Part shown: positions 17,689 to 52,747 of the stretch, piece after piece
Layout of the letters: each line of letters opens with the position of its first letter
How positions within the stretch are numbered: position 1 is the first letter of the stretch
Assembly (NCBI GenBank): GCA_041665345.1
Contig: JBAYJA010000001.1
Coordinates: 457,206 to 521,205, forward strand
Length of the DNA: 64,000 nucleotides
Direction of reading: 5' to 3'
Source: Patescibacteria group bacterium
GTDB lineage: Bacteria; Patescibacteriota; Patescibacteriia; PEXW01
Made by a program: the position numbers and the translations under genes
Notes under the pieces: generated by a model
What the model was told of the DNA's origin: nothing
The model's database searches: none
Seen by the model: the letters and a program-made list of their open reading frames with translations, nothing else

Positions 17689-17724
17689 TTTTCATTGTTT
17701 GGTAGGGTATTGAGGACGCAATTT

Positions 17725-30074: not shown

Positions 30075-30211
30075 AGATTAAAGGTTGAGTTTTGGATGGC
30101 GGAATGGATTAAGGGTGGAGATAGGGGAAGGGGAGGTAGAAATGTATTGCACGTCTTTCCAAAAAAACTTGGTTCTATTGCATTCTTAACTCGGTAAGTA
30201 TTACCTCCCCC

Positions 30212-30246
30212 AACCCCTCCTTCGAAAGGAGGGGAGGGTTTTTTGG
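30212..30246 (+). terminator. Rho-independent terminator
   Basis: cccctcc-ttcgaaa-ggagggg followed by tttttt. Confidence 0.65.
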
Positions 30247-30307
30247 TTATTTAAAGGCAAGGTTTTTTGTACGTTTCCTCCCCTTTCGAAGGGGAGGTTA
30301 GGAGGGG

Positions 30308-30329
30308 TAACCCTTACCGGTCAAAGCCC
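30308..30329 (+). repeat. left 22-bp direct repeat flanking the accessory island (att-like)
   Basis: gtaacccttaccggtcaaagcc; repeated at 39988-40010; contains near-palindrome GGTAACCCTTACC. Confidence 0.6.
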
Positions 30330-30435
30330 GCGTTACAGAATCAAGCATCATCCAAATCAAACCAATATTCAAAATCTTCCCCCTCCCCGCAACCCCTCTG
30401 GTTCCTTGTCATCAGTCCCTAATTCTTCCCCTCCC

Positions 30436-30480
30436 AATTCGTACATTCGTATTTTCGTAGTATCTTTTCGTAATTCGTAA
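30436..30480 (+). repeat. five TTCGTA hexamer repeats
   Basis: aattcgtacattcgtattttcgtagtatcttttcgtaattcgtaa. Confidence 0.5.
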
Positions 30481-30490
30481 CCATTTTTCC

Positions 30491-30522
30491 GCTAACCTTA
30501 GCCCTTTTGGCTAACCTTAGCC
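30491..30522 (+). promoter_or_regulatory. tandem 13-bp palindromic direct repeats GCTAACCTTAGCC x2 (putative dimeric-regulator operator)
   Basis: Two exact copies with 19-bp phasing, ending 10 bp upstream of the -35 box. Confidence 0.5.
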
Positions 30523-30532
30523 ATTTTAGGTA

Positions 30533-30561
30533 TTGACAGGATTGGCTATCAGGTATATACT
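30533..30561 (+). promoter_or_regulatory. strong sigma70-type promoter at the island entry
   Basis: TTGACA, 17-nt spacer, TATACT. Confidence 0.6.
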
Positions 30562-30562
30562 C

Positions 30563-30877
30563 GTTTGTTGACTTGAAAATCCATTTACTTCTCGGTTCGC
30601 TGAAAGAGAGAGCAGCGCTCCGAACTGTATTGCTTATAGCTTACGGCTTATGGCCTAAGGCTTACCCAAAGGTGCTCTCTCGCAGAGGACCTGTTCTTTT
30701 ATATATATTCTATTTCGCGACATGGAGGGGGAGCATCCGAGTGGAGCGGCATCGCGGCGGGTTTACTCGCCAAAGACGCTTAACCATTCATCGTGATGTG
30801 CGCTTCGGCGCAAAACATCACTCAGCTAATACTCCTCCAGATCAAGGAATAGAAAACAGAAAAACATCGGAGATCAA
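30563..30877 (+). ncRNA. candidate structured leader RNA A (~315 nt)
   Basis: Follows the promoter; gcgcUUCGgcgc tetraloop hairpin; 9-bp long-range helix gagagagca/ugcucucuc; shares tatagcttacggc and atggaggggg motifs with region B. Confidence 0.3.
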
Positions 30878-31144
30878 ATGAAAACTTTACACATTGTAAG
30901 ACGGGCCGGACACTGCATGCTTGAAACAGTGAAATGCACTGTTGGTTTGGCTGCCTTCATCGTACTTGTTGCGATGATTACCGTCATAAGCATCGTGGCC
31001 GTTTACGGGTGTTATCTGGCCTTCAGTGAAGGTGGTACCAACGTCGGCCTGGGCGTAGTCTGCACATTCGGCGTAGTGCTCTGGACTCTTGCGAGGCAAG
31101 GCTGCTTCCAGAGACGAGACCGGGATCTGACCCGGCAGTACTAA
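30878..31144 (+). CDS. small membrane protein (2 TM)
   Basis: ggag RBS; hydrophobic helices. Confidence 0.4.
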   Translation: MKTLHIVRRAGHCMLETVKCTVGLAAFIVLVAMITVISIVAVYGCYLAFSEGGTNVGLGVVCTFGVVLWTLARQGCFQRRDRDLTRQY

Positions 31145-31273
31145 GTAATTTCTGCGGAGTTGTAGTGGATCCGTCCCTACCGCTCCGCAACTCATCCCGG
31201 AAGACGACATAAGCAGAAGATCGTCGTCCGAGATGAGAAGAAGAATTGAAAATGGAAAAAGAAAGAGGGAAAA

Positions 31274-31630
31274 ATGTCGGAAGAGAAAAAGCTTGAATTT
31301 ACGGTGGTTGGGTTCGCAAGTGCTATAAGTGCGCAGGAAGCACTTAGGCGCCTCAAGGACTTAGGCTACAAGATCCTGAGCGTGAAAGAGTTTCAGGAAT
31401 TTGCCAAGCAGATGGTAACGGATGGCCAAGAATGGCCGACGGTGGATCTGCAAGCGCGACTTGAGGGGACGTTGGTAGTTTCCGGCGAAACTATCGAAGG
31501 TGATGAGGAGCCATACTTTCTCACCCTGAATAGCCTTGGAGAATGGGAGAAGGAAAAAAGGGGAAAACAAGAAAACTTGTATAGACCTTACTTCGCTTGC
31601 ATTCTGCCTCAGTCTTCAAAATCTGAATAG
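31274..31630 (+). CDS. small acidic soluble protein
   Basis: gagggaaaaATG RBS; 118 aa. Confidence 0.4.
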   Translation: MSEEKKLEFTVVGFASAISAQEALRRLKDLGYKILSVKEFQEFAKQMVTDGQEWPTVDLQARLEGTLVVSGETIEGDEEPYFLTLNSLGEWEKEKRGKQENLYRPYFACILPQSSKSE

Positions 31631-32183
31631 GTACCGTGGGTTCGCAGGATCACCCAAATAAAAATCCTGCACTCATCTTGGTTGGCTATACGAAAATAGC
31701 CACTCGGGACGAGACAGCACATTCCAACCATGGTTCTGGCAAGTATGGAGGGGGCTAAGTGTGGGCATGAAAGCTATCGCGCGGGGATTTCTCCGCAAAG
31801 ATAGACGACACGTCTTTGCGCTCCGAGGCTTCGGTCTCAAAGGAGAGCACGAGTATCCCAGGCCTACAGCTTTATAGCTTACGGCCTACGGCTACTCACC
31901 ACTTTCACCTCCAGACTTGCCCAAATACATGGAACGAACGTTGACAACTTTTTCTTTCCGACTTGGAGGGGTCACGAGCACTGCATGGACTAGCGTTACC
32001 TGGGGAGCAATCTCCGCGTAACGTCACAGTACATGCATCATGGTCAGGACTTCGGTCCACAGGCCATCTCTCATTCAGTCTTGGCTTTACCCACCTTCGC
32101 TATGAAGCTTCGGTGGGCAAGCGGCTGGGTTCGCTCGCCTCCAGATCGGAAAGAAAGAAACACACTCAAAAGGAGAATAGAAA
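31631..32183 (+). ncRNA. candidate structured RNA B (~550 nt) with several cUUCGg tetraloop hairpins
   Basis: gaggcUUCGgucuc, ggacUUCGgucc, aagcUUCGgugg, tggctat-N7-atagcca; no convincing ORF; shares motifs with region A. Confidence 0.3.
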
Positions 32184-32404
32184 TGTTGCATCCAGCAGTT
32201 TTTCAAATTAGCTGCTTAGCAGCAATATGCGCCATTGTATATGGCATATTGCATATCAAATCACCCTGGAGCCTTGTAGTTGGGTTATTTTTAGGGGTTA
32301 TATCGGTGACTTCTTTGTTAATACCAACTGTCAACAATTCCCCGGCACATGTGACACTTCTAGCTTTCGTCACGGCATATGTGACGGCAGTTTGCAAAAA
32401 GTGA
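32184..32404 (+). CDS. small membrane protein (73 aa)
   Basis: aaggag RBS; TM helices; the listed longer ORF (32033) runs through RNA-like sequence. Confidence 0.35.
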
Positions 32405-32424
32405 TAAAAGGGAACCTTGGCTAC

Positions 32425-32488
32425 GGGTGAGTCGCATGATTCACCCCCCATCCCTGCCGTCGAGTAATGAACGACGGTGGAGATGGGA
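32425..32488 (+). repeat. intercistronic tandem-hairpin element, family 1 (copy 1a)
   Basis: hp1 gggtga-N10-tcaccc; hp2 cccatccctgccgtcg-agtaatga-acgacggtggagatggg; then A-rich spacer, SD, ATG at 32524. Confidence 0.7.
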
Positions 32489-32523
32489 AGAGAAAAAATT
32501 GCAAAACCAAAGGAGAAAATAAA

Positions 32524-33075
32524 ATGACCAAATATGTAGTGATTTGTTGTGCCATCTTAGTGTTGCTGCTGTTAGCGGCGCAGCGTCAGAATGTTGATCT
32601 CACTCCCTTTAACCGGACAGTGAATGCTCCGGTAGTTTCATACACTTTTGAGATTGACAGTTCGAAGGCGGATAAGCAGGTGATCATTACCAGCTTTAAG
32701 GCCTTGCGGTGGCCAAACGTCAAGACCTTGAGTGATACTCTCACTCAAGAAGATTTCTTTAACGTTCTCGTCATACCGAGTGGATCTAGACCGCAAATAA
32801 AATTTACTGTCTACGAAGACAGTACGTACGACATGCGGGAAGTTACGTTCTTTATCCCGTGGCCGGTGTATGATTCACTTCTGGCTGGAAGAGATATTCA
32901 CATTCACACTTTTCCTCATGACTACACCTTCAACGGTGTAGCAAACTGCGAGAGATGTGGGGAGGCCATGTGCGGTGAATTGACCAAAGATAAGGGCACT
33001 GGATGTACCTTGTCTAAGAATCATCCTGGATCTCACAAAAATGAATGGGATCCGGAAAAAGTTTCTTGGGAGTAA
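32524..33075 (+). CDS. secreted protein with Cys-rich C terminus
   Basis: Signal peptide MTKYVVICCAILVLLLLAAQ; C-terminal CERCGEAMCGE...GCTLSKNHPGSH. Confidence 0.45.
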   Translation: MTKYVVICCAILVLLLLAAQRQNVDLTPFNRTVNAPVVSYTFEIDSSKADKQVIITSFKALRWPNVKTLSDTLTQEDFFNVLVIPSGSRPQIKFTVYEDSTYDMREVTFFIPWPVYDSLLAGRDIHIHTFPHDYTFNGVANCERCGEAMCGELTKDKGTGCTLSKNHPGSHKNEWDPEKVSWE

Positions 33076-33102
33076 TTTGCTCCCATTTGTAAGCCCCTTG
33101 AA

Positions 33103-33176
33103 GAAGGCGAGAGACTCTCCATGTCCTCGCCTTCCTATCCCTGCCGTCGAGTAATGAACGACGGTGGAGATGGGAA
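33103..33176 (+). repeat. tandem-hairpin element, family 1 (1b)
   Basis: hp1 gaaggcgag-N14-ctcgccttc; hp2 ctatccctgccgtcgagtaatgaacgacggtggagatggga. Confidence 0.7.
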
Positions 33177-33205
33177 TAGAAATTAAAACCATTGTTGGAG
33201 GAAAG

Positions 33206-33787
33206 ATGTCAAACAAAAGCATAATTTCAAACTTTCTGAGAGCTTATCGTGAAGACGCCGTTACCCTGCGCCGGGTTGGAACAAATGAAAGCTTTCGTGT
33301 CGTCTTCATTTTCAATCACGCGTTGGGCGATTACACAGACGAAAAGCTAAGCGACCCGATATCGCTCACGGAAGGCGCAAAACTTGCTGCCGACGTGCTC
33401 TGCCACAATGCCAACCATATCTGCATGATATTGGGGGGCTTTGTTCAGCACGGAATCAAGGAACCTGGTTTTTCAGAAGCGGTCAGCGCTTTGAAAAATT
33501 CCCTGAATAACCGTGGGAAAATTCATCCCATGCGCGCCGTTTGCCTCATCAAGGAGTTAATGGCGCATGAAAGGACAATTTTATGTACGCGGGATTTTGA
33601 AAAAAGCGAGACGTACAATATCTCCTTTCTCAGAAATTCCGATCTCAAGCTGACAACCGGTTGGATCTCTGACCCTCTTGACCCAGTGACGGCACGCAAG
33701 CTCGCAGATAATCCAAACTGCGAAAATCGCTGGTCAGCGATTGCCATCCTCGATTGCGGACTCTTTAAGTCCCCCAAGACCCAATAG
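33206..33787 (+). CDS. hypothetical protein (193 aa)
   Basis: ggaggaaag RBS; the listed ORF start at 33164 lies inside the repeat. Confidence 0.4.
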   Translation: MSNKSIISNFLRAYREDAVTLRRVGTNESFRVVFIFNHALGDYTDEKLSDPISLTEGAKLAADVLCHNANHICMILGGFVQHGIKEPGFSEAVSALKNSLNNRGKIHPMRAVCLIKELMAHERTILCTRDFEKSETYNISFLRNSDLKLTTGWISDPLDPVTARKLADNPNCENRWSAIAILDCGLFKSPKTQ

Positions 33788-33797
33788 TACCTTGGTT

Positions 33798-33862
33798 GGG
33801 TGAACCTTTGCGCTCACCCTCCCATCCCTGCCGTCGAGCTATGAACGACGGTGGAGATGGGA
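33798..33862 (+). repeat. tandem-hairpin element, family 1 (1c, no gene downstream)
   Basis: hp1 gggtgaa-N9-tcaccc; hp2 tcccatccctgccgtcgagctatgaacgacggtggagatggga. Confidence 0.7.
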
Positions 33863-34061
33863 ACTAAATATAGACGAAAGGTAAGAAAAAAAGTTTATTT
33901 TGTTCGCAATCTCACTAATATTGCTATCTCGAGGGATAGGCGAAAATTGCAATAAACTCGCGAAGGTTTACGGCGGGTAAAAAATATCCCACCAAGCAGT
34001 GAGGTTGATGCAGGCAGAACACCTCACATGCTATCCCACCAAAAAAGTTCATTTGAACTAA

Positions 34062-34141
34062 GACAGGCGCATCACGGATATCTTCTATCCTCACCCCTGT
34101 CTTCCTCTCCAAGCCCACGTCAACACGCGGGTTTAGAGAGG
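34062..34141 (+). repeat. tandem-hairpin element, family 2 (2a)
   Basis: hp1 gacagg...ggata-tcttc-tatcc...cctgtc; hp2 cctctccaagcccacg-tcaaca-cgcgggtttagagagg. Confidence 0.7.
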
Positions 34142-34180
34142 AAAATGAAATAATAAACACATCACATTTGGAGGTAATGG

Positions 34181-34753
34181 ATGCAGGCATTGAATACCTT
34201 TAGTAATGCGCTGAATGTTGCCGGTATAATTCGGAGACGTCGAGCCTTTAAAGCGTTAGCCCAAATGAACCGTGATTTTATGGTTCTTCGAAACAATCTT
34301 CGGTATGCAAGTGGTTACGCCGGCTGCCCTTTGGATCGGCTGGTACTGCTGTTCAAGGCCGTGTCGCCATTTTACGATCGGCTGCCGGAATTTCGTGCCC
34401 TTTTGGTTAGATTCCAGGCCGGCAATTATGATGGAAGTCTGGGCCGTCAAGTGGAAGCTATTTCCACACTCATAGCCCACTTTGGCAATTGTGGGCGCGA
34501 TCCTTACGGCATGAACCGCACGAAGCCTGGGGACGGGGTTACTGAGTACAAGGTGTATCTTGGGAATATTTACGGTTTGTTCCCCCAACCCGTCCCGACC
34601 TGGAAGGAATGCAAGAATTGGTTAAAAGGTGGTTGGGGTAGCCCAAAAATGGCGCACCTCAATGCCTATGACGTTGTGTGTGGCCAGGCGAATAGTTTCG
34701 CCAACCCGCACTTCAAGCCGATGATTGAGGCACTTGAAGTTCTGGGCGCATAA
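34181..34753 (+). CDS. hypothetical protein (190 aa)
   Basis: ggagg RBS. Confidence 0.4.
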   Translation: MQALNTFSNALNVAGIIRRRRAFKALAQMNRDFMVLRNNLRYASGYAGCPLDRLVLLFKAVSPFYDRLPEFRALLVRFQAGNYDGSLGRQVEAISTLIAHFGNCGRDPYGMNRTKPGDGVTEYKVYLGNIYGLFPQPVPTWKECKNWLKGGWGSPKMAHLNAYDVVCGQANSFANPHFKPMIEALEVLGA

Positions 34754-34775
34754 AGTCAAAATTCGCTCATTGGTT

Positions 34776-34844
34776 GGTGGGTTTACAATTCTTGTTGACC
34801 CGCCTTCCTCTCCAAGCCCACGTCTGTACGCGGGTTTAGAGAGG
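34776..34844 (+). repeat. tandem-hairpin element, family 2 (2b)
   Basis: hp1 ggtgggt-N15-acccgcc; hp2 cctctccaagcccacg-tctgta-cgcgggtttagagagg. Confidence 0.7.
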
Positions 34845-34878
34845 AAAAATGAAACAATAAATTTTTTGGAGGTATATC

Positions 34879-35337
34879 ATGTCGATTACAAAAATTCGTA
34901 GTCGTTGCGAAATTTTTGTCTGTCAGGCAACTGTTTCGGGAATTTACCTATCCCTCTGGGTTTTGCTGTGGGGGTTTGATGAATATCTTTCGACCTTCCA
35001 GATCTCAGCGGGTATTTACTTCTGGGTGGGAGGGGTCTTGGCGAGCGGGTTTCTCGCCCTTTCTGTTATGGGCTGGATTTCACAAAATTGGCCCGGATCC
35101 CATATTGAGCAGGTAAAAGATGGGGTCTGCTGGGGCACAAGAAGTGCATTCGGATTCATCTTTATTGGAATAGGGGCTGTATTAACTCTCATCGCCATTG
35201 GGGTGATGATCCATGCCTTCACAGCGAATATTTTGTCTGAGGACGTAGCAGCTATGGCCGCAGGGGCTCTACTCGTATTCGCAATCGCATGCATCGTTGC
35301 TTGCTTTGGCGATATGATCTTAGTGGAGCCAGTTTAA
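34879..35337 (+). CDS. membrane protein (4 TM)
   Basis: ggagg RBS; four hydrophobic helices. Confidence 0.45.
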   Translation: MSITKIRSRCEIFVCQATVSGIYLSLWVLLWGFDEYLSTFQISAGIYFWVGGVLASGFLALSVMGWISQNWPGSHIEQVKDGVCWGTRSAFGFIFIGIGAVLTLIAIGVMIHAFTANILSEDVAAMAAGALLVFAIACIVACFGDMILVEPV

Positions 35338-35362
35338 AAACATTAAAAGAGCTCATTGGTTG

Positions 35363-35433
35363 GTGGGTCTACAATTCTTGTTGACCCGCCTTCCTCTCCA
35401 AGTGCATGTATGGTATACGTGTGCTTAGAGAAG
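35363..35433 (+). repeat. tandem-hairpin element, family 2 (2c) with compensatory changes
   Basis: hp2 ccaagtgcatg-tatggtata-cgtgtgcttagagaag; stem substitutions relative to 2a/2b keep pairing (G-U and A-U replace G-C). Confidence 0.7.
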
Positions 35434-35464
35434 AAAAAACAAATTATGTTTTGAAGGAGTTTCT

Positions 35465-35698
35465 ATGTTTGAGCCAGTCGTTGTGCAAATGAGCATGCTC
35501 GTCGCATGGTACCTGACAGTTTCTAGATATTGCAGGGTAAAGGGTCTGCGATCTCTGGTGGGGTCAGCGATACTAATATTTGGCTTCATTTTCTTCAATA
35601 AGATGAATGAGGCAGAATGGTTTCTACCCTATCTCTTTATAGTCGCTGTTTACTACAACGATAAAAGAGAAAGTTGGATTAGGAATGAGATAAGCTGA
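35465..35698 (+). CDS. small membrane protein (2 TM)
   Basis: aaggag RBS. Confidence 0.4.
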   Translation: MFEPVVVQMSMLVAWYLTVSRYCRVKGLRSLVGSAILIFGFIFFNKMNEAEWFLPYLFIVAVYYNDKRESWIRNEIS

Positions 35699-35750
35699 TC
35701 TCGCGGCGAGGTGCAGATGCATGCAGAACCGCACATTAGCGAACGAAAAG

Positions 35751-35858
35751 ACAGGCACCCTGTACCATCTAGTACGGGGCAGCTGCATTACGGATATCCT
35801 CTATCCGCACGCCTGTCTTCCTCTCCAAGCCCACGTTTGTACGCGGGTTTAGAGAGGA
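35751..35858 (+). repeat. tandem-hairpin element, family 2 (2d, no gene downstream)
   Basis: hp1 gacaggc...cggatat-cctc-tatccg...gcctgtc; hp2 cctctccaagcccacg-tttgta-cgcgggtttagagagg. Confidence 0.65.
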
Positions 35859-36079
35859 ACATAGTTTCCGAAAAATGTGGCTGGTCCAGCAGGTGGGAGC
35901 TGGCGGATGATAGCCCGGAGCGAAGGAACGCTCGGCTTCGTGAAAACGGGGTAACAGGGATCGAAACCCTTCCAGCCTACAAATATTGCACGTCGTGACC
36001 CCAAGCAAGCATGTAAGGCACGACACTTTCCCAGTCTTGCTTGCTAGCAGACTGAAGCGCAGATGGTTCTGCGACGTTT

Positions 36080-36148
36080 GGGCGAGATGTACCATTCCTC
36101 GCCCCTTTCCTTAAATTATCGTGAACTCCACGATGTCTTAAGGAAGGG
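36080..36148 (+). repeat. tandem-hairpin element, family 4
   Basis: hp1 gggcgag-N11-ctcgccc; hp2 ctttccttaa-N22-ttaaggaaggg; then aaaata...aaggag ATG at 36173. Confidence 0.65.
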
Positions 36149-36172
36149 AAAATATACCTGAAGGAGTTTAGC

Positions 36173-36409
36173 ATGATTTTCTTAAAGTTTGTTCTCGTAT
36201 TGTACTTTTTATTTATTGGCCTCATACTCATTTTCCGCATTGGGAAAGTGGTCTCGCAACTTTTGCATCTCGTGAATACACTTGGATGGAGGCTGCGAAA
36301 CAAATGCTGGCTGATGAGGTCAAAGTACAGAATGTATCGCATCAAACGGTACCTTGAAAAGCATATTCGAGAGTGTGAAATTCAGATTGCTCAGCTAGAG
36401 CAACGTTAA
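36173..36409 (+). CDS. small membrane protein (78 aa)
   Basis: aaggag RBS; N-terminal TM. Confidence 0.35.
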   Translation: MIFLKFVLVLYFLFIGLILIFRIGKVVSQLLHLVNTLGWRLRNKCWLMRSKYRMYRIKRYLEKHIRECEIQIAQLEQR

Positions 36410-36437
36410 CCGCACATTTTGGTATGTACAGTATTTA

Positions 36438-36503
36438 GGGCGAATTACAAGATTCGCCCCTTTCCTCAACTTGTTCTGTGCGAACAGAACGGGTGGAGGA
36501 AAG
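36438..36503 (+). repeat. tandem-hairpin element, family 5 (variant of family 4)
   Basis: hp1 gggcgaa-N8-ttcgccc; hp2 cctttcctcaac...gggtggaggaaag with inner stem gttctg/cagaac. Confidence 0.65.
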
Positions 36504-36525
36504 AAACACAGAAAGGAGAACAAAG

Positions 36526-36873
36526 ATGTATTTTGAAAGAACATTCGTACTTATGGGCGCCGTCTTGATGGCCGGGTTAGCCGTTGTTATCCTTGCGACA
36601 GCGCCTGTACAGGTAATTTTCTTGAGTACCGGCACCCCGCAGGTCATTAACGGCTACAACGCCGATTCAACCCGCGGGTTGTTCTTGGAGGTGCCCGCAA
36701 CCTTTTCTCTTACAGATTCAGCAAAAGTCTGGGTGAAGGTCGAAGCGGTGGTTCGGGAATGGGAAGAATCACACCCTGAATACCGAACTGATGGAACGGC
36801 CCCGCAGATGCGGTTTCAGACCGGACAGCGTGACACGGTGGATAGGTTGTTCTACCACCTAATTCGAAAGTAA
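36526..36873 (+). CDS. small secreted protein, member of the L[EK][VL]PVxxxLxDS paralog family
   Basis: Signal peptide; motif LEVPATFSLTDS; start moved to 36526 (aaggag RBS). Confidence 0.45.
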   Translation: MYFERTFVLMGAVLMAGLAVVILATAPVQVIFLSTGTPQVINGYNADSTRGLFLEVPATFSLTDSAKVWVKVEAVVREWEESHPEYRTDGTAPQMRFQTGQRDTVDRLFYHLIRK

Positions 36874-36883
36874 GTAATTTCAT

Positions 36884-36948
36884 GGGCGAGTCTAGTGATT
36901 CGCCCTCCCATCTCTGCAGTCAATACAGAATGACCGTAGAGATGGGAG
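36884..36948 (+). repeat. tandem-hairpin element, family 1 (1d)
   Basis: hp1 gggcga-N10-tcgccc; hp2 tcccatctctgcagtca-atacagaa-tgaccgtagagatggga. Confidence 0.7.
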
Positions 36949-36968
36949 AAGGAAAACAAGGAGAAAAA

Positions 36969-37319
36969 ATGTTAAGTAAAACAAATGATCGATTAACGAC
37001 CATTCTTGTGTACCTACTGGTCGGGATTTGTGCGATCACTGTTCCGGAGTATTTCAAATCGGACGTGCGAATTGTTGCGTTTGGTGGTCCCACAACGTAT
37101 GGGCATGATCATACGTCGAATGAGATGGTCCTTGAGGTTCCGGTTGATCTTCGCCAGTGCAGTGAAAAATCAGCGATTCCTACGATTTGCAATCTCATTC
37201 GTGAACGGGAATCACAAGAGGTTCGAGGTAATCTCATCCTCGGCGATTTTGTTGGATTACAACCGTACGGTTCGTTTGAGGGGTTAGCAAAAGCAGTCTT
37301 CAAGCTCGTACAACGATAA
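36969..37319 (+). CDS. small secreted/membrane-anchored protein, paralog family
   Basis: N-terminal TM anchor; motif LEVPVDLRQCSE; aaggag RBS. Confidence 0.45.
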   Translation: MLSKTNDRLTTILVYLLVGICAITVPEYFKSDVRIVAFGGPTTYGHDHTSNEMVLEVPVDLRQCSEKSAIPTICNLIRERESQEVRGNLILGDFVGLQPYGSFEGLAKAVFKLVQR

Positions 37320-37346
37320 CTGCACTCTGACTCAGAGTACATTTTC

Positions 37347-37410
37347 GGGCAAACCTATGTGTTTGCCCTCCCATCCTTGCGGTCAATACAGAATGACCGC
37401 GGAGATGGGA
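37347..37410 (+). repeat. tandem-hairpin element, family 1 (1e)
   Basis: hp1 gggcaaac-N6-gtttgccc; hp2 tcccatccttgcggtca-atacagaa-tgaccgcggagatggga. Confidence 0.7.
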
Positions 37411-37435
37411 AAGAAGTTAAAAAATGGAGTAAGAA

Positions 37436-37612
37436 ATGAAAAAATTTGTCTCAATTTTTACCATCGCGGGGACAGGCGTCCTCTCCTTCCTTTTCATGAG
37501 TTGGGTTTTGAAAGAAGTGAAACCCGATGTGTCAATTGGTTGGGTTGTCATGATCAGTGTGCTGACCATACTCGGCGGGTGGTTAGTAGAAAAAAAATGC
37601 CGCAGAATATAG
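37436..37612 (+). CDS. small membrane protein (58 aa, 2 TM); below the ORF-track size cutoff
   Basis: ATG 25 nt after the hairpin element with ggag RBS; hydrophobic helices; next element begins 12 nt after its stop. Confidence 0.3.
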   Translation: MKKFVSIFTIAGTGVLSFLFMSWVLKEVKPDVSIGWVVMISVLTILGGWLVEKKCRRI

Positions 37613-37623
37613 CACATATGAAC

Positions 37624-37692
37624 GGCGAGAGACTCTCCTAGTCCTCGCCCTCCCATCCCCGCGGTCAATGCAGAATGACCGTGGAGATGGGA
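37624..37692 (+). repeat. tandem-hairpin element, family 1 (1f)
   Basis: hp1 ggcgag-N14-ctcgcc; hp2 tcccatccccgcggtca-atgcagaa-tgaccgtggagatggga. Confidence 0.7.
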
Positions 37693-37725
37693 AAACGAAA
37701 AAACTAATAAGGAGTTAGGAGTATC

Positions 37726-38094
37726 ATGACGAATCAGAATGAATTCAAAACGCCCATCCAATTAGTTCTCGGGGTTGGCGACAAGAAGCACCAAGGACTT
37801 CTCTTGGTGTTTGAAGATTTTCTCAAAGGTCCTGAGATAAGCATGGAGCAAATCACAGCTCCCGCCATCACGGGATCGATACCAGAACTGTCGGTCCAGC
37901 ACATCACCGTATGGTTTGATGGAAAGGATGTCGACAAGTTGCACTTCACGAATCAGGAAAGCTGCATCGTGTGGAACCATTCCTACCTGGACGGAAAGCC
38001 GCAAAGCTTCTTTTTGGAAGCTACGCCGGGTAAAATTCTCCGTGCGGTAAAGGCCATCTTCATCAAGCGGATGGTATCCTGGATGCAGGAATAA
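37726..38094 (+). CDS. hypothetical soluble protein (122 aa)
   Basis: aaggag RBS. Confidence 0.4.
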   Translation: MTNQNEFKTPIQLVLGVGDKKHQGLLLVFEDFLKGPEISMEQITAPAITGSIPELSVQHITVWFDGKDVDKLHFTNQESCIVWNHSYLDGKPQSFFLEATPGKILRAVKAIFIKRMVSWMQE

Positions 38095-38113
38095 TAGCTT
38101 TGTCCTTTGGCTG

Positions 38114-38173
38114 GGCGAACTCTGTTCGCCCTCCCATCCCTGTGGTCAATGCAGAATGACCGTGGAGATGGGA
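38114..38173 (+). repeat. tandem-hairpin element, family 1 (1g)
   Basis: hp1 gggcgaa-ctctg-ttcgccc; hp2 tcccatccctgtggtca-atgcagaa-tgaccgtggagatggga. Confidence 0.7.
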
Positions 38174-38199
38174 AAACGAAAAACTAAGGAGCTTGAATA

Positions 38200-38424
38200 A
38201 TGAAAAAGTATTTTTTAAGCAAGTGCACAATTGTCTTGATGGTCATGCTCATGTTCATTTGTAACCTGTCGGGTTACTCCGAATGGGCAATGAGCTTACC
38301 GTCTTGGAAAAAAGAATTAATGGGGCACTTTGTCCCAAGTTGCTGCCTGTTGTTAATCATTATCATTATTGACCAGGCAACAATTCGGTGGCGCACCTCA
38401 GAAAAGGTGATAGCCAACAAATAG
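38200..38424 (+). CDS. small membrane protein (2 TM)
   Basis: aaggag RBS. Confidence 0.35.
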   Translation: MKKYFLSKCTIVLMVMLMFICNLSGYSEWAMSLPSWKKELMGHFVPSCCLLLIIIIIDQATIRWRTSEKVIANK

Positions 38425-38475
38425 AAGCTGTTGCAAAAAGCGATGTCATAAACATAAGTACATGGAGGTAAAAAA

Positions 38476-38859
38476 ATGAAAAGTAGCACAATTTTCTGGA
38501 TCTTCATCGCTTGCATTCTTGCTTTTGCCGCAATCCCACGCTTTGTGGCAGTTGCAGAGCTTAAACAAGCTACTAAGAGGGTGCAAGTTTTTGCCGAGGC
38601 GATCACAACGTACGCCGGTGTTGACGCTGACGGTGATAGCGTTGAGCTGCTAAAGCTCCCGGTTCATTATGAGCTGAGGGATTCGGTAGCGGCAGCCACG
38701 AAGGTCCAAACTGCGCTTGCAGTTTGGGCTACCGGTAATCCTTGGCTATCCTTCGCAAATGAGGTCTACGAGTATCGGGACAAGTACTTTGACAATGATT
38801 CAACAATCATCTCGGCTGAGTACTACGTCATCGAACCGACGCCCGTCGGTTACAAGTAA
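38476..38859 (+). CDS. small secreted protein, paralog family (LKLPVHYELRDS)
   Basis: Signal peptide; clear paralog of 39214..39594. Confidence 0.5.
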   Translation: MKSSTIFWIFIACILAFAAIPRFVAVAELKQATKRVQVFAEAITTYAGVDADGDSVELLKLPVHYELRDSVAAATKVQTALAVWATGNPWLSFANEVYEYRDKYFDNDSTIISAEYYVIEPTPVGYK

Positions 38860-38874
38860 ACTTTCTTTGGAATC

Positions 38875-38940
38875 GAGGTCTGCGTCAAAACCAGACCTCC
38901 CCCTCCTTAAGCTGGGACAAAAGTGTCGGCATGAGGAGGG
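38875..38940 (+). repeat. tandem-hairpin element, family 3 (3a)
   Basis: hp1 gaggtctg-N9-cagacctc; hp2 ccctccttaagc...gcatgaggaggg; then A-rich. Confidence 0.7.
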
Positions 38941-38967
38941 AAAAAATATCAAGAAAAGGATAAATAC

Positions 38968-39099
38968 ATGAAACGAGTTTGCAACTTCTTATTCAGTCTG
39001 GTCTTATGGATTATATCCATTGACCATTGTGACAATTATGCGGGTTGTACTGTATGCCATGCGTATAAAGCGTATGCCAAGCAGCTTCGAACAAAGTAG
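38968..39099 (+). CDS. possible 43-aa Cys-rich membrane peptide; below the ORF-track cutoff
   Basis: MKRVCNFLFSLVLWIISIDHCDNYAGCTVCHAYKAYAKQLRTK; flanked by family 3 elements 28 nt upstream and 20 nt downstream. Confidence 0.25.
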   Translation: MKRVCNFLFSLVLWIISIDHCDNYAGCTVCHAYKAYAKQLRTK

Positions 39100-39118
39100 A
39101 TTGAACATTAAGAATACT

Positions 39119-39186
39119 GAGGTCTGCCTAACAACCAGACCTCCCTCTCCTTGAGCCCTGATGAAAATCAAGGTTGAAGGAGAAGA
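39119..39186 (+). repeat. tandem-hairpin element, family 3 (3b)
   Basis: hp1 gaggtctg-N9-cagacctc; hp2 cctctccttgagcc...ggttgaaggagaag. Confidence 0.7.
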
Positions 39187-39213
39187 GTAAAACATTAGTA
39201 CGGAGGTATAAAG

Positions 39214-39594
39214 ATGAAAAAGAAAACATTCGCAATTATTTTTTGGGTGGTCGCTGCTTGCGTCCTCACCTGCGCTGCATATTTGGATTTTACGGATTAT
39301 GCAGAACGCGAGGATGCCGAAAAGCGAGTACAGGTTTTCCCCGACTCGATTATCTTCGTCGGGAGTAGCAGCACTACTGGGGAAGATTCATTGTTTCTAA
39401 AACTACCTGTACGCTACAATCTTGCAGATTCGTCCGGAGCATTTTTGAAGTGCTCTCACGTGCTTGCATGCTGGCTTGCTGATCATCGTTTCAAAGCACG
39501 GGTCGCAATGCGGTACAGCGAATGCGATACATACCGTGCCGACGACTCCAATACCATCGTGGTCGCGGAGTACTACTTGGTGGAAAAGAAGTAA
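39214..39594 (+). CDS. small secreted protein, paralog family (LKLPVRYNLADS)
   Basis: Signal peptide; paralog of 38476..38859; ggagg RBS. Confidence 0.5.
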   Translation: MKKKTFAIIFWVVAACVLTCAAYLDFTDYAEREDAEKRVQVFPDSIIFVGSSSTTGEDSLFLKLPVRYNLADSSGAFLKCSHVLACWLADHRFKARVAMRYSECDTYRADDSNTIVVAEYYLVEKK

Positions 39595-39609
39595 AGCTCT
39601 TTGGGAATC

Positions 39610-39672
39610 GAGGTCTGCATCTGTGGACCTCCCTCTCCTCAAGCTGGTAAAAATTATAGGTTTGAGGAGGGG
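39610..39672 (+). repeat. tandem-hairpin element, family 3 (3c, no gene downstream)
   Basis: hp1 gaggtc-N10-gacctc; hp2 cctctcctcaagc...gtttgaggagggg. Confidence 0.7.
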
Positions 39673-39946
39673 AAAAACTTCGGAGACTCTTCGCTGCACT
39701 CAGAGTGACAGGGAAGAGCCAGGGGACTATAGTAGGGCTGGGTCTTTCCTTGGCACGCTGCGTACCTTCGTACGATCTCAGGTTACACGAGCATAAGCTG
39801 GAACTCTCTCCCAGCAGATGAACGGATGACCCGGGTATCACTCGCACGGTACCGGCGTGTCAAGCAAGGATCCAAAGGAAAGAAAGAGTTGTTGAATAGG
39901 GTGGCGAGTTTGCGTGCTGGCGAGCTGGCGCGTTGGTTTTTTTACA

Positions 39947-39973
39947 CCCAGAGCGGCTTTTCTAAGCCGCGGT
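39947..39973 (+). repeat. conserved hairpin element, copy 3 of 3
   Basis: tttttttacacccagagcggcttttctaagccgcggtg, just inside the right island boundary. Confidence 0.6.
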
Positions 39974-39987
39974 GTTAGTTTCCCGGC

Positions 39988-40010
39988 GTAACCCTTACCG
40001 GTTGAAAGCC
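39988..40010 (+). repeat. right 22/23-bp direct repeat flanking the island (att-like)
   Basis: gtaacccttaccggttgaaagcc; 21/22 identity with the copy at 30308. Confidence 0.6.
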
Positions 40011-40036
40011 AGTACGAACGGGGAGCTTGAAAAAAG

Positions 40037-41689
40037 TTGAGAAAATCAGTACAGTACAGGCACTCTATGTGGCAGAAACTCTGGACCAAGCTCTCCACGA
40101 CCATTCTGGGTGGGGCAATCGTCATTGGCTTTACCGGCATTATCAGCCGGGTTTTGGGTTTGGTGCGGGATCGGCTCCTGGCTTCTGAGTTTGGTGGTGG
40201 TGGCGCGTTGGATACGTACTTTGCCGCTTTCAAACTGCCTGACTTCATCTTCAACATCCTGGTGCTTGGCGCACTTTCCTCCTCTTTCATCCCGGTTTTC
40301 GTTGGGTACCTAAAACGAGCCGAGTCAGACCCGCAAGGCAAGGACGATGCCTGGCAAGTGGCGAATTCTATTCTCAACCTCCTGTTGATCGTTTTGGTGG
40401 GTTTGGGCATTCTCTTTGCCATTTTTGCGAATCATCTGGTACCGCTCATCGCTCCTGGGTTTACTGGTGAGAAGTTGGAAGAAACTGTCCACCTCACGCG
40501 CATCATGCTCCTGGCCATTGTCTTCTTTGGCGCTAGCAATATCGTTTCGGCGATTCTCAATTCTTTCAAACGGTTTTTTGCCTTTGCCTTGGCACCCGTG
40601 CTGTACAACCTGGGCATTATCGCAGGTATTCTGTTCTTTGTGCCAAAGTGGGGGATTGCTGGTCTGGCGTATGGCGTGGTGTTGGGTGCAGTTGCGCATT
40701 TGGCCATCCAAATTCCTGGCGTTATGAAGCTTGGCTTTCGGTACCGCCGCATTTTATCGTGGAAGCATCCGGGGGTGCAGCGCGTCGGGAAGCTCATGCT
40801 GCCTCGGACGTTTGGTCTAGCCGTGAACCAGATTGACCAGCTGGTCAGCACAATTATTGCCACCAGCTTGGCAGCCGGGAGTTTGACGCAATTCAACTTT
40901 GCGAACAATTTGCAAAATTTTCCCATCAACGTGTTCGGCGTGTCTTTAGCCATTGCCGTCTTTCCTGCTTTCTCCGAAGCGTTTGCCGCCAAAGACATGG
41001 GTGCATTTGTTCGGCATTTTTCGCTCACCGTTCGGCGTTTGCTGGTGGTGATGATTCCGGCGTCAGTGCTGCTGCTTATCCTGCGCGCGCAGATTGTCCG
41101 GGTCGTCGTTGGTGCCGAAGCGTTTGACTGGGACGCAACCTACCTCACTGCGCAAGTCCTGGGAGCATTTACCCTGTCGCTATTTGCGCAGGCACTCATT
41201 CCCATTCTGGCGCGTTCATTCTACGCTTTGCACGACACAGCCACCCCAGTGAAAGTTGGGATCCTGGCAGTTGCAGTGGATATTGCTGCCGCGCTGATTC
41301 TCTCCAAGCACTACGGGATTGTGGGCGTGGCCATCGCCTTCTCCCTATCAAGTTTAGTGAACATGCTACTGCTGTACATTATCCTTCGGGTACGGTTGGG
41401 GAGTTTGGACGGCGCACGGATATTCCGTTCTACCAGCCGCATTGTCATTGCCTCGCTCCTGGCGGGTATAGCCTGCTGGTCTAGCTTGCGCTTCGCAGCA
41501 CTCGGTGTTGATATGAGCCGCTTGGTGGGGATTTTCCTCCAAGGTTTGGTTGCAGGAAGTATTGGGATGGTGGTCTACCTCATTGCAGCTTCAGTACTCC
41601 GCGTTGAAGAAGTAGAAGTCTTCCGCGCGTGGTGGTATCGGGTGAAAAAATTCATTACGAATGGAAATGGAACCAAGGCGCAGGTATGA
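40037..41689 (+). CDS. murJ: lipid II flippase MurJ (MviN)
   Basis: Multi-TM 550-aa protein with MurJ N-terminal signature (ISRVLGLVRDRLLASEFG...DTYFAAFKLPDF). Confidence 0.85.
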   Translation: MRKSVQYRHSMWQKLWTKLSTTILGGAIVIGFTGIISRVLGLVRDRLLASEFGGGGALDTYFAAFKLPDFIFNILVLGALSSSFIPVFVGYLKRAESDPQGKDDAWQVANSILNLLLIVLVGLGILFAIFANHLVPLIAPGFTGEKLEETVHLTRIMLLAIVFFGASNIVSAILNSFKRFFAFALAPVLYNLGIIAGILFFVPKWGIAGLAYGVVLGAVAHLAIQIPGVMKLGFRYRRILSWKHPGVQRVGKLMLPRTFGLAVNQIDQLVSTIIATSLAAGSLTQFNFANNLQNFPINVFGVSLAIAVFPAFSEAFAAKDMGAFVRHFSLTVRRLLVVMIPASVLLLILRAQIVRVVVGAEAFDWDATYLTAQVLGAFTLSLFAQALIPILARSFYALHDTATPVKVGILAVAVDIAAALILSKHYGIVGVAIAFSLSSLVNMLLLYIILRVRLGSLDGARIFRSTSRIVIASLLAGIACWSSLRFAALGVDMSRLVGIFLQGLVAGSIGMVVYLIAASVLRVEEVEVFRAWWYRVKKFITNGNGTKAQV

Positions 41690-49757: not shown

Positions 49758-50023
49758 CGTGGATAACTCGGTCAAATATCACTCAAATGGCATGGTAGCC
49801 TAGAAGTGAAATACATAACCGAGGTTGTACTCATGGAACCACTGGAAAGGCCAGGAGTACACCTCACGAAATGAAAATCCAGTACCGGCATGTTCTTTGC
49901 CAAGGAAGTGAGGTGAAACACCAACGTTAACTCCAAAGGGAGGCACAACGTACTGCTTTCAGGCGTATGTCTGAGGGTATGAGATTGTAACCAAACCAAC
50001 CCGTAGGCCAGAAGGCTTACAGA

Positions 50024-50797
50024 ATGGAGAATTTTATGAGGAGCAATAGTTTGCTCTTTGTTGCAGTGCTAGCCTTCATGGCTAGTGTTGCGTTTGTCCT
50101 TGGTGGTTGTTCCGATAAAGGAATTAGCACACAAGAACACAGCGTTCATCAAATTGAGGCAGATTTGATTGTCGATGCCAACAATTCCCAAATCGTTCAA
50201 CTCGAAGCGTATCGAAATCGGTTATCCGAGATTGCTATTCCATCACTTGATGTTTTCGCGCAGATTGCAGATAGTATTATTGATGGCAAGGTTATCAGCG
50301 ATACGATCTTGATTCGGGACAAAATTTGGGAAGCATTACGTGCGTGTGGTAAGGGAAATGCTAGTACCCCAACAGCAACTTCCTACAGTATTAGTAACCT
50401 AACTTCGCAGGAATTTTGGCTTTTGATGGCAAACCCTTGGAACGCGAATGCAACTAATACTGCAAGAAACCTTGCACTTAGTGCTGCGCAGAATGTATGG
50501 CCTGGATCACAGTATCAAACGAAGGCTGACGCATTCCGCCATGCGTACTGGAACATACTTATGTCAAAGTACGTTAGCATTTCATGGGCGCAGCAAGTGG
50601 CTACGGCACATGAGTCTGAATCACCGAATACTGTGGATAAGGCAATGGATCTAGACAACAACGCGGTAGGTCGTCGGCTCTATTCTCAGTATTCTTGGTA
50701 CTCTGAGTCAGATTTTGTGTACATGTTACGATACTATACTTACGTAAAGGTTTCTTCGATCCCGGCGTACACATGGTATCTTGTGTATCTTGCGTAG
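50024..50797 (+). CDS. lipoprotein of unknown function (start of the AT-rich block)
   Basis: Signal peptide with lipobox VLGGC. Confidence 0.45.
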   Translation: MENFMRSNSLLFVAVLAFMASVAFVLGGCSDKGISTQEHSVHQIEADLIVDANNSQIVQLEAYRNRLSEIAIPSLDVFAQIADSIIDGKVISDTILIRDKIWEALRACGKGNASTPTATSYSISNLTSQEFWLLMANPWNANATNTARNLALSAAQNVWPGSQYQTKADAFRHAYWNILMSKYVSISWAQQVATAHESESPNTVDKAMDLDNNAVGRRLYSQYSWYSESDFVYMLRYYTYVKVSSIPAYTWYLVYLA

Positions 50798-50887
50798 ACA
50801 CCTCACCCTTGAACCTTCATGAAGCCATCGGATACTTCAGTAAATTCGGTGGCTTTTCCTTTTCATACTATGATATTCTAATACCAT

Positions 50888-51226
50888 ATGATTTCTAAGG
50901 TGTATAAAAGTTTAATTGTAATAATCCTCGTCATTCTAGTGTTTACTGGAGTCACGGTATTTCTCACACTCAATAGTCTTCACGTCACAAACGCTACGGG
51001 TGTGGTTGTGAAATTAACCAGTAATGGACAGCAAGCATGGGGTCTTCGGACTGAATTTCGTATTCTTCGACCATTTGCTCCAAGAGCTTTACAATTCACG
51101 AATTTTGAAAATATATCGCAATACGATGGTCAGCGAATCCACTTGCAGTATGAGACTGTAGATGTTCTTGGAACAGGCGATTTTGACGTGTACGTAAGGC
51201 CAATTCAAATCGAGCGCCTAAAGTAA
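50888..51226 (+). CDS. small membrane-anchored protein
   Basis: N-terminal TM. Confidence 0.35.
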   Translation: MISKVYKSLIVIILVILVFTGVTVFLTLNSLHVTNATGVVVKLTSNGQQAWGLRTEFRILRPFAPRALQFTNFENISQYDGQRIHLQYETVDVLGTGDFDVYVRPIQIERLK

Positions 51227-51352
51227 GGCTTTACGTCCAAATCAGCGTTTATTTGTACCCTTCCCAAAACGGGCGGATTTTTGTATAATATAATCACTTT
51301 TAGCACTTGTTAATTCCTTAAAAAGTTAGAATGTAAAATTCAGACTCATAGA

Positions 51353-52732: not shown

Positions 52733-52747
52733 CCGTTTATTTCCTAG

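Follow-up and report, generated by a model that had tools for sequence, protein, structure and literature searches.

Organisation of the locus

The locus described here lies in a window of 64,000 nucleotides of a Patescibacteria group bacterium (assembly GCA_041665345.1, contig JBAYJA010000001.1, positions 457,206 to 521,205 of the forward strand), in which a block of 9.7 kb stands to the right of genes for an A2M-like giant protein and Memo (PF01875) and to the left of those for MurJ (PF03023) and LepA. The block holds 17 small open reading frames (ORFs), all on the plus strand: the gene calls of the source contig comprise 16 plus-strand genes of 58-193 amino acids (aa), none with a Pfam match, and a 43-aa ORF is added to these. 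An initial annotation had counted about 20 such ORFs and had suggested that the block may be an AT-rich, repeat-laden integrative island bounded by 22-bp direct repeats, without an integrase and either mobilised in trans or decayed. Its description of the block was largely borne out. The G+C content (GC) is 0.46-0.50 within the block and 0.52-0.58 in the flanks, and the ORFs of the block (GC 0.469; GC at third codon positions, GC3, 0.523) deviate in the same direction from the flanking genes (GC 0.547, GC3 0.601). Many repeats are present, the position between Memo and murJ is as described, and no recombinase domain was detected with Pfam in the substantial ORFs of the window, pseudogenes not having been searched for. 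Searches of the window cover 64 kb, which is 6% of the 1.08-Mb contig.

Related arrays share the scaffold and differ in their cassettes

Homologues of MurJ are annotated as Patescibacteria, Parcubacteria or Kerfeldbacteria, the closest being 77-80% identical. Six related Patescibacteria loci (numbered with the prefix L) carry a homologous array, five of them directly upstream of murJ or downstream of Memo. In L013, L014, L017 and L038 an array of small same-strand ORFs without Pfam match is located immediately upstream of murJ, with MurJ 79-80% identical at the protein level in the first three and murJ 77.6% identical at the nucleotide level in L038. The arrays of L013, L014 and L017, in which the array start is present, contain five, seven and two ORFs, respectively, behind the same operator, promoter and leader as in the window, and the trailer was found in these three loci and in L038; leader and trailer of this group are 72-80% identical to those of the window. 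The left flank of L013, L014 and L017 is a glycosyltransferase/DUF4012 cluster and not Memo, and none of the three has an ORF cassette in common with the window. The 22-mer of the initial annotation is absent from all four loci.

Two further loci, L036 and L037, were located via the few cassettes that have homologues. Both hold arrays of ~5 kb from leader to trailer, with leaders 82-85% and trailers 88-95% identical to the window; L037 includes both boundaries, and the contig of L036 starts inside the leader region and stops inside the trailer. Junctions and RNA elements are colinear with those of the window, yet only three or four cassettes are shared (56-80% aa identity). Most other cassettes of the window are lacking and different ORFs stand behind the same junctions. 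The junctions on either side of the slot held by the 190-aa ORF are 76-85% identical and the ORFs in it 25%, which argues for replacement by a distant family member and not for divergence in place.

The closest relative is represented by L037 together with L043, a contig of the same sample on which Memo is 82% identical (aa) and adjoins the array. Synonymous divergence (dS) to this relative ranges from 0.8 (A2M) to 1.4 (Memo); since the adjacency of Memo and array is common to both genomes, the arrangement predates their split. Arrays are lower in GC than their flanks in every relative, so that low GC is a property of the locus and not a mark of recent arrival. Homologous cassettes were also detected at different array positions (L014_6930 and L038_63, 42% identity), and the breakpoints of homology are not fixed, as one falls between hairpins 1 and 2 of a junction and another in the Shine-Dalgarno spacer.

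When metagenomes were scanned with the operator-promoter module, 16 loci were obtained, among them arrays built like that of the window. A second array class with the same module is represented by five contigs (L020, L024, L025, L032 and L035; JGI Ga0172379 and a Hainich contig), in which an unrelated leader RNA of ~240 nt, ending in an intrinsic terminator, precedes the ORF array. In L035, unrelated ORFs, including two that encode CheY-like receivers, are set apart by three near-identical junctions of ~130 bp, built in the same order of hairpin 1, hairpin 2, A-rich spacer and Shine-Dalgarno sequence. L024 and L035, both from a single metagenome, agree to 97% in their leaders and to 98.8% in their junctions and yet have different first ORFs, which indicates recent cassette replacement.

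The locus is ancestral, its scaffold is conserved and its content turns over cassette by cassette. With slightly better than even confidence we favour the reading of the block as a lineage-conserved, regulated and hypervariable polycistronic array of small genes next to murJ, and not as a recently integrated island. A literature search for descriptions of such arrays in the candidate phyla radiation (CPR) found none. The features of the array are listed in Table 1.

Table 1. Features of the array and its boundaries (positions in the 64-kb window).
Feature	Position	Strand	Remarks
Boundary module X (~135 bp)	30192-30328	.	inverted-repeat arms of 44 nt
Memo intrinsic terminator	30214-30244		inside module X
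Second module X hairpin	30277-30297		CCTCCCC..GGGGAGG
Left direct repeat GGGGTAACCCTTACCGGTCAAAGCC	30304-30328	+	right terminus of module X
Five TTCGTA direct repeats	30437-30480	+	upstream of promoter; also in L014 and L036, absent in L013
Twin palindromes GCTAACCTTAGC / GGCTAACCTTAGCC	30491-30523	+	operator-like; directly upstream of -35
Sigma-70 promoter TTGACA-17-TATACT	30533-30561	+	near-consensus, 11/12 positions
Leader part 1	30567-30701	+	attenuator-like
Leader RNA module copy 1	30716-30847	+	multi-stem, closed by UGGAGG / CCUCCA
ORF 1	30878-31144	+	88 aa, hydrophobic
Junction	31153-31237	+	hairpin 1 31153-31189, hairpin 2 31191-31237
ORF 2	31274-31630	+	118 aa, sole homologue itself
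Leader RNA module copy 2	31739-31921	+	
Leader RNA module copy 3	31957-32151	+	closing stem = repeat I4 (31951-31969 / 32138-32156)
ORF 3	32183-32404	+	73 aa, membrane-like
Junction, family A	32425-32487	+	hairpin 1 32425-32446, hairpin 2 32447-32487
ORF 4	32524-33075	+	183 aa, N-terminal hydrophobic anchor; homologue in L036 array, 56% identical
Junction, family A	33106-33176	+	hairpin 1 33106-33131, hairpin 2 33132-33176
ORF 5	33206-33787	+	193 aa, sole homologue itself
Orphan junction, family A	33798-33862	+	no ORF behind; hairpin 2 33820-33862
Junction hairpin 2, family B	34103-34142	+	
ORF 6	34181-34753	+	190 aa, widespread family, no Pfam assignment
Junction, family B	34776-34846	+	hairpin 1 34776-34804, hairpin 2 34805-34846
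ORF 7	34879-35337	+	152 aa, multi-pass membrane-like
Junction, degenerate family B copy	35358-35431	+	hairpin 1 35358-35394, hairpin 2 35395-35431
ORF 8	35465-35698	+	77 aa
Junction hairpin 2, family B	35813-35864	+	ahead of RNA cassette
Conserved non-coding RNA 'cassette'	35871-35983	+	GGCUGG/CCAGCC closing stem, three inner hairpins
Junction, family D	36081-36148	+	hairpin 1 36081-36103, hairpin 2 36104-36148
ORF 9	36173-36409	+	78 aa
Junction, family D	36438-36503	+	hairpin 1 36438-36459, hairpin 2 36460-36503
ORF 10	36526-36873	+	115 aa, signal-anchor then L-E-V-P domain; L036 orthologue 80% identical, dN/dS 0.12
Junction, family A	36884-36947	+	hairpin 1 36884-36905, hairpin 2 36906-36947
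ORF 11	36969-37319	+	116 aa
Junction, family A	37347-37410	+	hairpin 1 37347-37368, hairpin 2 37369-37410
ORF 12	37436-37612	+	58 aa
Junction, family A	37624-37692	+	hairpin 1 37624-37649, hairpin 2 37651-37692; 97% identical to L037 counterpart
ORF 13	37726-38094	+	122 aa, sole homologue itself
Junction, family A	38113-38173	+	hairpin 1 38113-38131, hairpin 2 38132-38173
ORF 14	38200-38424	+	74 aa, no hairpin junction after it
ORF 15	38476-38859	+	127 aa, paralogue of ORF 17
Junction, family C	38875-38940	+	hairpin 1 38875-38899, hairpin 2 38901-38940
ORF 16	38968-39099	+	43 aa, from ORF list only, no gene called
Junction, family C	39119-39183	+	hairpin 1 39119-39143, hairpin 2 39146-39183
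ORF 17	39214-39594	+	126 aa, homologue in L038, 59% identical
Last junction, family C	39610-39674	+	hairpin 1 39610-39631, hairpin 2 about 39632-39673
Trailer small-RNA gene	39705-39945	+	own promoter, rod-like RNA, intrinsic terminator
Right direct repeat GGCGTAACCCTTACCGGTTGAAAGCC	39985-40010	+	solo terminus copy of module X, between trailer small RNA and murJ promoter-like site
murJ promoter-like site	40027-40055		

Two-hairpin junctions separate the ORFs

The gaps between the ORFs measure 95-130 nt, and nearly every one of them is composed of hairpin 1, hairpin 2, an A-rich spacer, a Shine-Dalgarno sequence and the start codon (ATG). Hairpin 1 has a GC-rich stem of 6-15 pairs, and hairpin 2, which directly abuts it, is imperfect and has 15-19 pairs; the spacer from hairpin 2 to the start codon is 20-45 nt long, A-rich, and contains a good Shine-Dalgarno sequence. 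This stereotyped junction precedes 14 of the 17 ORFs. In front of ORFs 1 and 3 stands instead a leader RNA module, with spacer and Shine-Dalgarno sequence arranged in the same way, and ORF 15 has neither. Hairpin 2 falls into four sequence families, A to D, and in all of them the 5' arm is pyrimidine-rich (28% purine) and the 3' arm purine-rich (72% purine). A C.A mismatch recurs after the outer 6-8 pairs and is mostly the single internal irregularity. Junctions without an ORF ('empty' cassettes) were found in the window at 33788-34180 and in L036 at 1345-1625, that is, at the same place in two genomes.

No junction modules were detected elsewhere in the window, and of the hairpins with 17 pairs or more, 12 lie in the 10-kb island and five in the remaining 54 kb. 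A scan of a viral collection with the family-A junction gave no match. Orthologous junctions are 81-97% identical at a background dS of 0.8-1.4, which implies either strong purifying selection on the junctions or recent exchange.

A different explanation would be an ordinary fast-evolving accessory operon, with hairpins that resemble repetitive extragenic palindromes (REP) or terminators and have no array-specific role, and with a direct repeat that arose incidentally from the duplication of terminator modules. Operons often contain mRNA-stabilising palindromes between their genes (REP and bacterial interspersed mosaic elements, BIME), the boundary module X described below includes a bona fide terminator-like hairpin, and CCCCTCC..GGAGGGG hairpins are also found at array edges in other relatives. 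We regard this explanation as very unlikely, as the two-hairpin junction has one order, one polarity and a fixed distance to the start codon throughout the arrays examined, including the second class, is absent from the remaining 54 kb, is under strong purifying selection and belongs to a locus with dedicated conserved regulatory RNAs. The junctions share with REP/BIME, Correia-type elements and elements of the miniature inverted-repeat transposable (MITE) kind that they are repeated operon-internal palindromes which could stabilise upstream mRNA, and module X has terminal inverted repeats as miniature elements do. Unlike such dispersed elements, the junctions are confined to the array in a fixed register to the start codons. 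Module X was seen only at array boundaries within the 64 kb, which is 6% of the contig.

The strand preference of the hairpins was investigated in 43 hairpins upstream of ORFs from seven arrays. They contain 85 G.U pairs versus 25 A.C mismatches, and the sense strand was more stable in 32 of the 43 (mean -23.2 versus -19.9 kcal/mol). The bias is seen in isolated hairpins only; when entire intergenic regions were folded in sense and antisense, no clear bias emerged. The preference is indirect evidence that the junction hairpins may act on the sense strand.

In layout the array resembles integron arrays and attC-site clusters that have no integron-integrase (CALIN; Cury et al., 2016, PMC4889954). 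One promoter at one end is followed by short promoterless ORFs in one orientation with imperfect palindromes between them, and these palindromes are more alike within an array, as in sedentary integrons. Variation is cassette-wise, with unrelated and mostly functionally unassigned ORFs between conserved junctions and with homologous cassettes at differing positions; junction sequence is kept beyond structural requirement, ORF-less junctions and an RNA-only cassette occur, and no integrase is encoded nearby. The hairpins might accordingly be attC-like sites that fold as single strands and are served by a recombinase encoded elsewhere, in a CALIN-like cluster whose cassettes would be taken up, excised and reshuffled, with the shared promoter driving their expression. 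This main alternative is, in our view, rather unlikely. Recombination of attC sites proceeds through the bottom strand, antisense to the cassette ORFs, but the hairpins studied here are mostly more stable as the sense strand. By the published definition (PMC4889954), an attC site has an R and an L box, a central spacer that stays unpaired, extrahelical bases, a variable terminal structure between 20 and 100 nt long and a conserved AAC/GTT triplet. In contrast, this triplet is paired in one of 35 junction hairpins, which have a median length of 42 nt, loops of 3-11 nt, no R/L-box architecture, no unpaired central spacer, no long variable terminal structure and no obvious extrahelical bases, and a set of at least two attC-type sites was not found among the 35. 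Neither the 64 kb nor the surroundings of seven related arrays yielded an integrase domain, and no complete integron (intI, attI and Pc) was recognised, as there is no recombinase Pfam domain in the substantial ORFs of the window or beside the arrays of L013, L014 and L017. Breakpoints of homology do not fall at one fixed position. Integrons were not found in very small genomes, of the ~1-Mb size class, in a published survey (PMC4889954), and the host genome here is of ~1 Mb. Integrons also lack the double hairpins with the conserved A-rich 5' untranslated region behind them, and where they have intI/attI the array has a structured leader RNA with an attenuator. The locus is thus a recurrent Patescibacteria array that is integron-like in layout and not a member of the integron family.

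Doubtful to a similar extent is a cassette platform of Patescibacteria not described so far, in which the two-hairpin junction would act both as expression signal for each cistron and as capture or exchange site for a recombinase that is unrelated to IntI or encoded elsewhere. Such a platform would also cover the RNA-only cassettes, and the boundary module may let the whole array move or invert.

Operator, promoter and structured RNAs

The twin palindromes ahead of the promoter are invariant in four genomes and were present in 13 further metagenome loci. The TTCGTA / TACGAA clusters upstream of them are not kept in all relatives; in L014 (5481-5600) the hexamers form an inverted set of about five plus five. 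In a viral collection the promoter/operator module was detected on one phage-like contig (IMG/VR UViG 3300025322_001466; L026, L027, L034 and L044), which has large same-strand ORFs and bears one GGCTAACCTTAGCC palindrome, spaced as in the arrays from a TTGACA..TATAAT promoter, ahead of a 106-aa gene. This contig may be a phage of these bacteria that uses the host operator, or the match may be due to chance; the candidate operator palindrome is common to the arrays and this contig.

The first part of the leader looks like an attenuator, with a putative terminator and a mutually exclusive upstream pairing. An invariant element, GAAAGAGAGAGC at 30603-30614, is complementary to GCTCTCTC, the 5' arm of a conserved terminator-like hairpin at 30669-30693 (GAGAGAGC in the upstream element against GCTCTCTC in the arm). 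A U-tract follows the hairpin (30694-30701) and is found in most of eight genomes; among these, 10 of the 18 predicted pairs of the hairpin show compensatory changes. From this complementarity we infer that the upstream element could form an antiterminator and switch the leader between two structures. Behind it lies a multi-stem leader RNA module, present in two or three copies per array, in which 21 of 38 predicted pairs have compensatory changes (10 copies from six genomes). Leader RNAs and junction hairpins alike are structured and conserved. Terminator/antiterminator leaders and processive-antitermination RNAs such as EAR or put are known leader types. The array leader is similar to these in that a structured RNA is placed between a strong promoter and a long hairpin-rich operon and combines a terminator with an upstream sequence able to pair with its 5' arm; it differs from known attenuator and antitermination leaders in having no Rfam family and in the multiple copies of its multi-stem module.

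In the middle of the array an RNA of ~110 nt fills a slot where other cassettes have an ORF. It contains an invariant GGAUGAKAGCCCGGAGC and has counterparts in L013 (8497-8569), L014 (7818-7919) and L036 (2825-3071), being kept even in relatives that share no protein cassette with the window. The trailer small-RNA gene, just upstream of murJ, has a promoter GTGACA-17-TATAGT (39705-39733), of which TATAGT is kept in L036, L037 and L038, and an intrinsic terminator at 39912-39943. Its RNA is predicted to fold into a rod of ~130 nt with 47 pairs, 13 of them with compensatory changes, and a z-score of -3.3.

Leader, mid-array and trailer RNAs gave no Rfam match at gathering thresholds in the window and 16 loci, or at E <= 5 on the island; the only matches obtained were to tRNA and RNase P in the flanks of other loci and to chance miRNA-like hairpins. 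Compared with the respective consensus sequences, the mid-array RNA lacks the core motifs of hammerhead and tRNA-like RNAs, and the trailer those of signal recognition particle and 6S RNAs; these assignments, which have no Rfam match behind them either, were rejected. The locus contains four conserved covarying RNA elements without an Rfam family: the attenuator and the module of the leader, the RNA in the middle of the array and the trailer small RNA.

The direct repeats belong to a boundary module

Two exact copies of GTAACCCTTACCGGT are present in the window, at 30307-30321 and 39988-40002, both on the plus strand, and no further copy was found there with up to two mismatches. Shuffled sequences yield 0.08 expected matches, and two were reached in one of 100 shuffles, so that the repeats at both boundaries of the block, as reported in the initial annotation, are real and non-random. 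The right copy begins at 39988 as had been given, and the left one at 30307 and not at 30308. When extended, the repeat reads GGGGTAACCCTTACCGGT-CAAAGCC (30304-30328) and GGCGTAACCCTTACCGGTTGAAAGCC (39985-40010), with 22 of 23 positions in agreement. Both copies of the 22-mer carry the palindromic GGTAA-CCC-TTACC core (GGTAACCCTTACC core), and TTACCGGTCAAAGCC stands at the left end of the array, ahead of the leader.

The two repeats had been said to look like recombinase core sites. The palindromic core is indeed present, but the left copy is not free-standing, since it is part of the right arm of the inverted repeat of module X (arms 30192-30235 and 30276-30319). A degenerate inverted core, CGGTAAGTATTACC, is also contained in this module. 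The locus is the only place in the window with the core palindrome, the CCCCTCC..GGAGGGG hairpins of module X or the operator palindromes.

In the closest relative, L043 carries A2M and Memo followed by a homologue of module X, and its last 19 nt are the first 19 nt of L037. Joined, the two contigs give the order Memo, X, GGGGTAACCCTTACC, leader, array, trailer, GTAACCC and a second copy of X. This second copy has the same orientation as the first, is 86% identical to it over 99 nt and opens with the inverted core GGTAAGGGTTACC. The window has a full X on the left and, on the right, GTAACCC with only the last ~15 nt of X (~22 bp in all), an end that would fit a deletion between the GTAACCC preceding X and the GTAACCC ending X. 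L014 has an X-like segment between trailer and murJ in the opposite orientation. The 22-bp direct repeat is therefore the terminus of an inverted-repeat hairpin module that marks the array boundary; in this sub-lineage the repeats truly belong to the boundaries of the array, and they may have been involved in rearrangements. The same strain was recovered at 100% identity from three other samples by exact-protein look-ups, and its contigs break at the island repeats. Since only 100% identical contigs were obtained, they offered no population heterogeneity to exploit.

These boundaries bear on the proposal that the whole 9.7-kb block is an integrative, possibly decayed, element that entered at a 22-bp att core and is mobilised in trans. 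With att-bounded islands and prophage remnants it shares core-containing direct repeats exactly at both ends, found with module X only at the array within the window, a GC below that of the flanks and accessory cargo; in the closest relative, too, the core lies at the left end and the inverted core with a second X at the right, and L014 and L037 differ in how the X-like segment is oriented to the array, which hints at rearrangement of whole arrays. Against this, every relative examined carries the array, and four of them (L013, L014, L017 and L038) carry it at murJ without the 22-mer, a finding that the initial annotation had itself named as one that would refute its proposal. Leader, trailer and murJ-side position are conserved, lower GC is common to the arrays of all relatives, and content varies by cassette and not by presence or absence of the whole block. 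Neither integrase nor excisionase, tRNA or other typical target was found, and a scan of the viral collection with the 22-mer yielded no match and no attP-like copy. An empty site, with Memo adjoining murJ and a single 22-mer between them, was not encountered among the seven related loci, all of which are occupied; a Memo-based scan of a genome collection reached only relatives of 30-35% identity, which are uninformative in this respect. The integrative island of the initial annotation is thus largely unsupported and, to our minds, quite unlikely. In particular, a tRNA-targeting island was rejected, as no tRNA was found at the island with ARAGORN.

Cassette content

The cassettes are protein-coding. 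Shared ones evolve under purifying selection (ratio of nonsynonymous to synonymous substitution rates, dN/dS, 0.12-0.13), which identifies them as real genes; among them, ORF 15 has homologues in L036 (63-64% identical, dN/dS 0.13) and L037 (59-61%). Many cassettes of the window seem to encode small proteins with a membrane or signal-anchor character, and one paralogous family has four members. A word-index homologue search with the 17 cassettes concatenated returned nothing. When eight cassettes were subjected to an exhaustive search, four had no homologue at all and three had one or two, all in other arrays, so that most cassettes are orphans.

The family of ORF 6 comprises about 200 clusters at 50% identity and is marked by an invariant N-R-T motif. 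Since distant members are stand-alone genes, the family is not specific to arrays. Its AlphaFold model (predicted local distance difference test, pLDDT, 96) is a confidently predicted helical fold, which had no match in the PDB with E <= 0.001 and gave no functional clue.

Ten cassettes scanned against PHROGs, PADLOC and NCBIfam showed no match, and a phage-derived or known-defence island accordingly found no support. In L036 (4951-5421) a cassette encodes an Rce1/CPBP-like membrane protease (PF02517). The Rce1/CPBP family includes bacteriocin-immunity proteins, which is a hint only as to the function of the cargo.

A possible mode of expression and turnover

How a regulated array of this kind might work can be outlined from the scaffold. 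The array would be one transcription unit, in which a factor binding the operator and the leader attenuator control read-through. Hairpin 2, an imperfect duplex of about two turns, would be a processing site in the sense RNA for a double-strand-specific RNase such as RNase III, and its geometry of 15-19 pairs with a conserved C.A mismatch is compatible with a site of the RNase III type. Hairpin 1 would stabilise the 3' end of the upstream cistron. Alternatively or in addition, the junction hairpins may act as 3' and 5' stabilisers and as translational insulators, so that each cistron would be expressed independently. Being repeated, the junctions would also supply homology for loss, duplication or replacement of cassettes by recombination. 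We put the chances about even that the array is a single regulated transcript which is processed or insulated at hairpin 2 and whose junctions mediate cassette turnover.

Polycistronic mRNAs of the phage T7 type carry RNase III processing hairpins between cistrons. The array is comparable to these in its long run of short same-strand genes, its strong promoters and its mismatched two-turn hairpins followed by an unstructured leader with a Shine-Dalgarno sequence. It differs in being a chromosomal hypervariable locus, in the extra upstream hairpin and in the strict pyrimidine/purine asymmetry of the arms.

Several points weigh against the favoured reading. RNA processing, attenuation and transcription as a single unit are deductions from the DNA. 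The difference in folding energy between sense and antisense is modest, and G.T pairs form in single-stranded DNA as well. Some orthologous junctions are near-identical including their loops, beyond structural need, perhaps because their sequence is specifically recognised as DNA or because of a recent exchange. The loss and replacement of cassettes can be accounted for by homologous recombination at junctions, but the origin of entirely new ORFs cannot. The join of L043 and L037 rests on the 19-nt overlap and synteny with the window only. Finally, a recombinase acting in trans, or more copies of the repeats, may lie beyond the visible 6% of the genome.

Patescibacteria of the CPR, for the most part uncultured episymbionts, have genomes of ~1 Mb that are thought to leave little space for a flux of accessory genes. 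Between close relatives the locus keeps a regulatory and punctuating scaffold, and yet almost all of its genes, which are small and largely membrane-like, are exchanged. In the relatives the array lies in a cell-envelope neighbourhood, from the glycosyltransferase/DUF4012 cluster to murJ, and is therefore a candidate for generating variation at the surface or in host interaction. It raises the question of how accessory genes diversify in minimal genomes without classical mobile-element machinery.

Other features of the window

A second and much stronger low-GC block (GC 0.31-0.39) was noted at 50000-56000. It contains genes for a DUF6973 protein, two proteins without Pfam match, a phosphatidylserine decarboxylase and the 5' part of a 7TM-GAF histidine kinase; at the matching position after GtrA, L013, L014 and L017 have glycosyltransferase and epimerase genes instead. 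The sole tRNA of the window, tRNA-Tyr, immediately follows the tyrosyl-tRNA synthetase gene, and the pair is located at 16483-17811.

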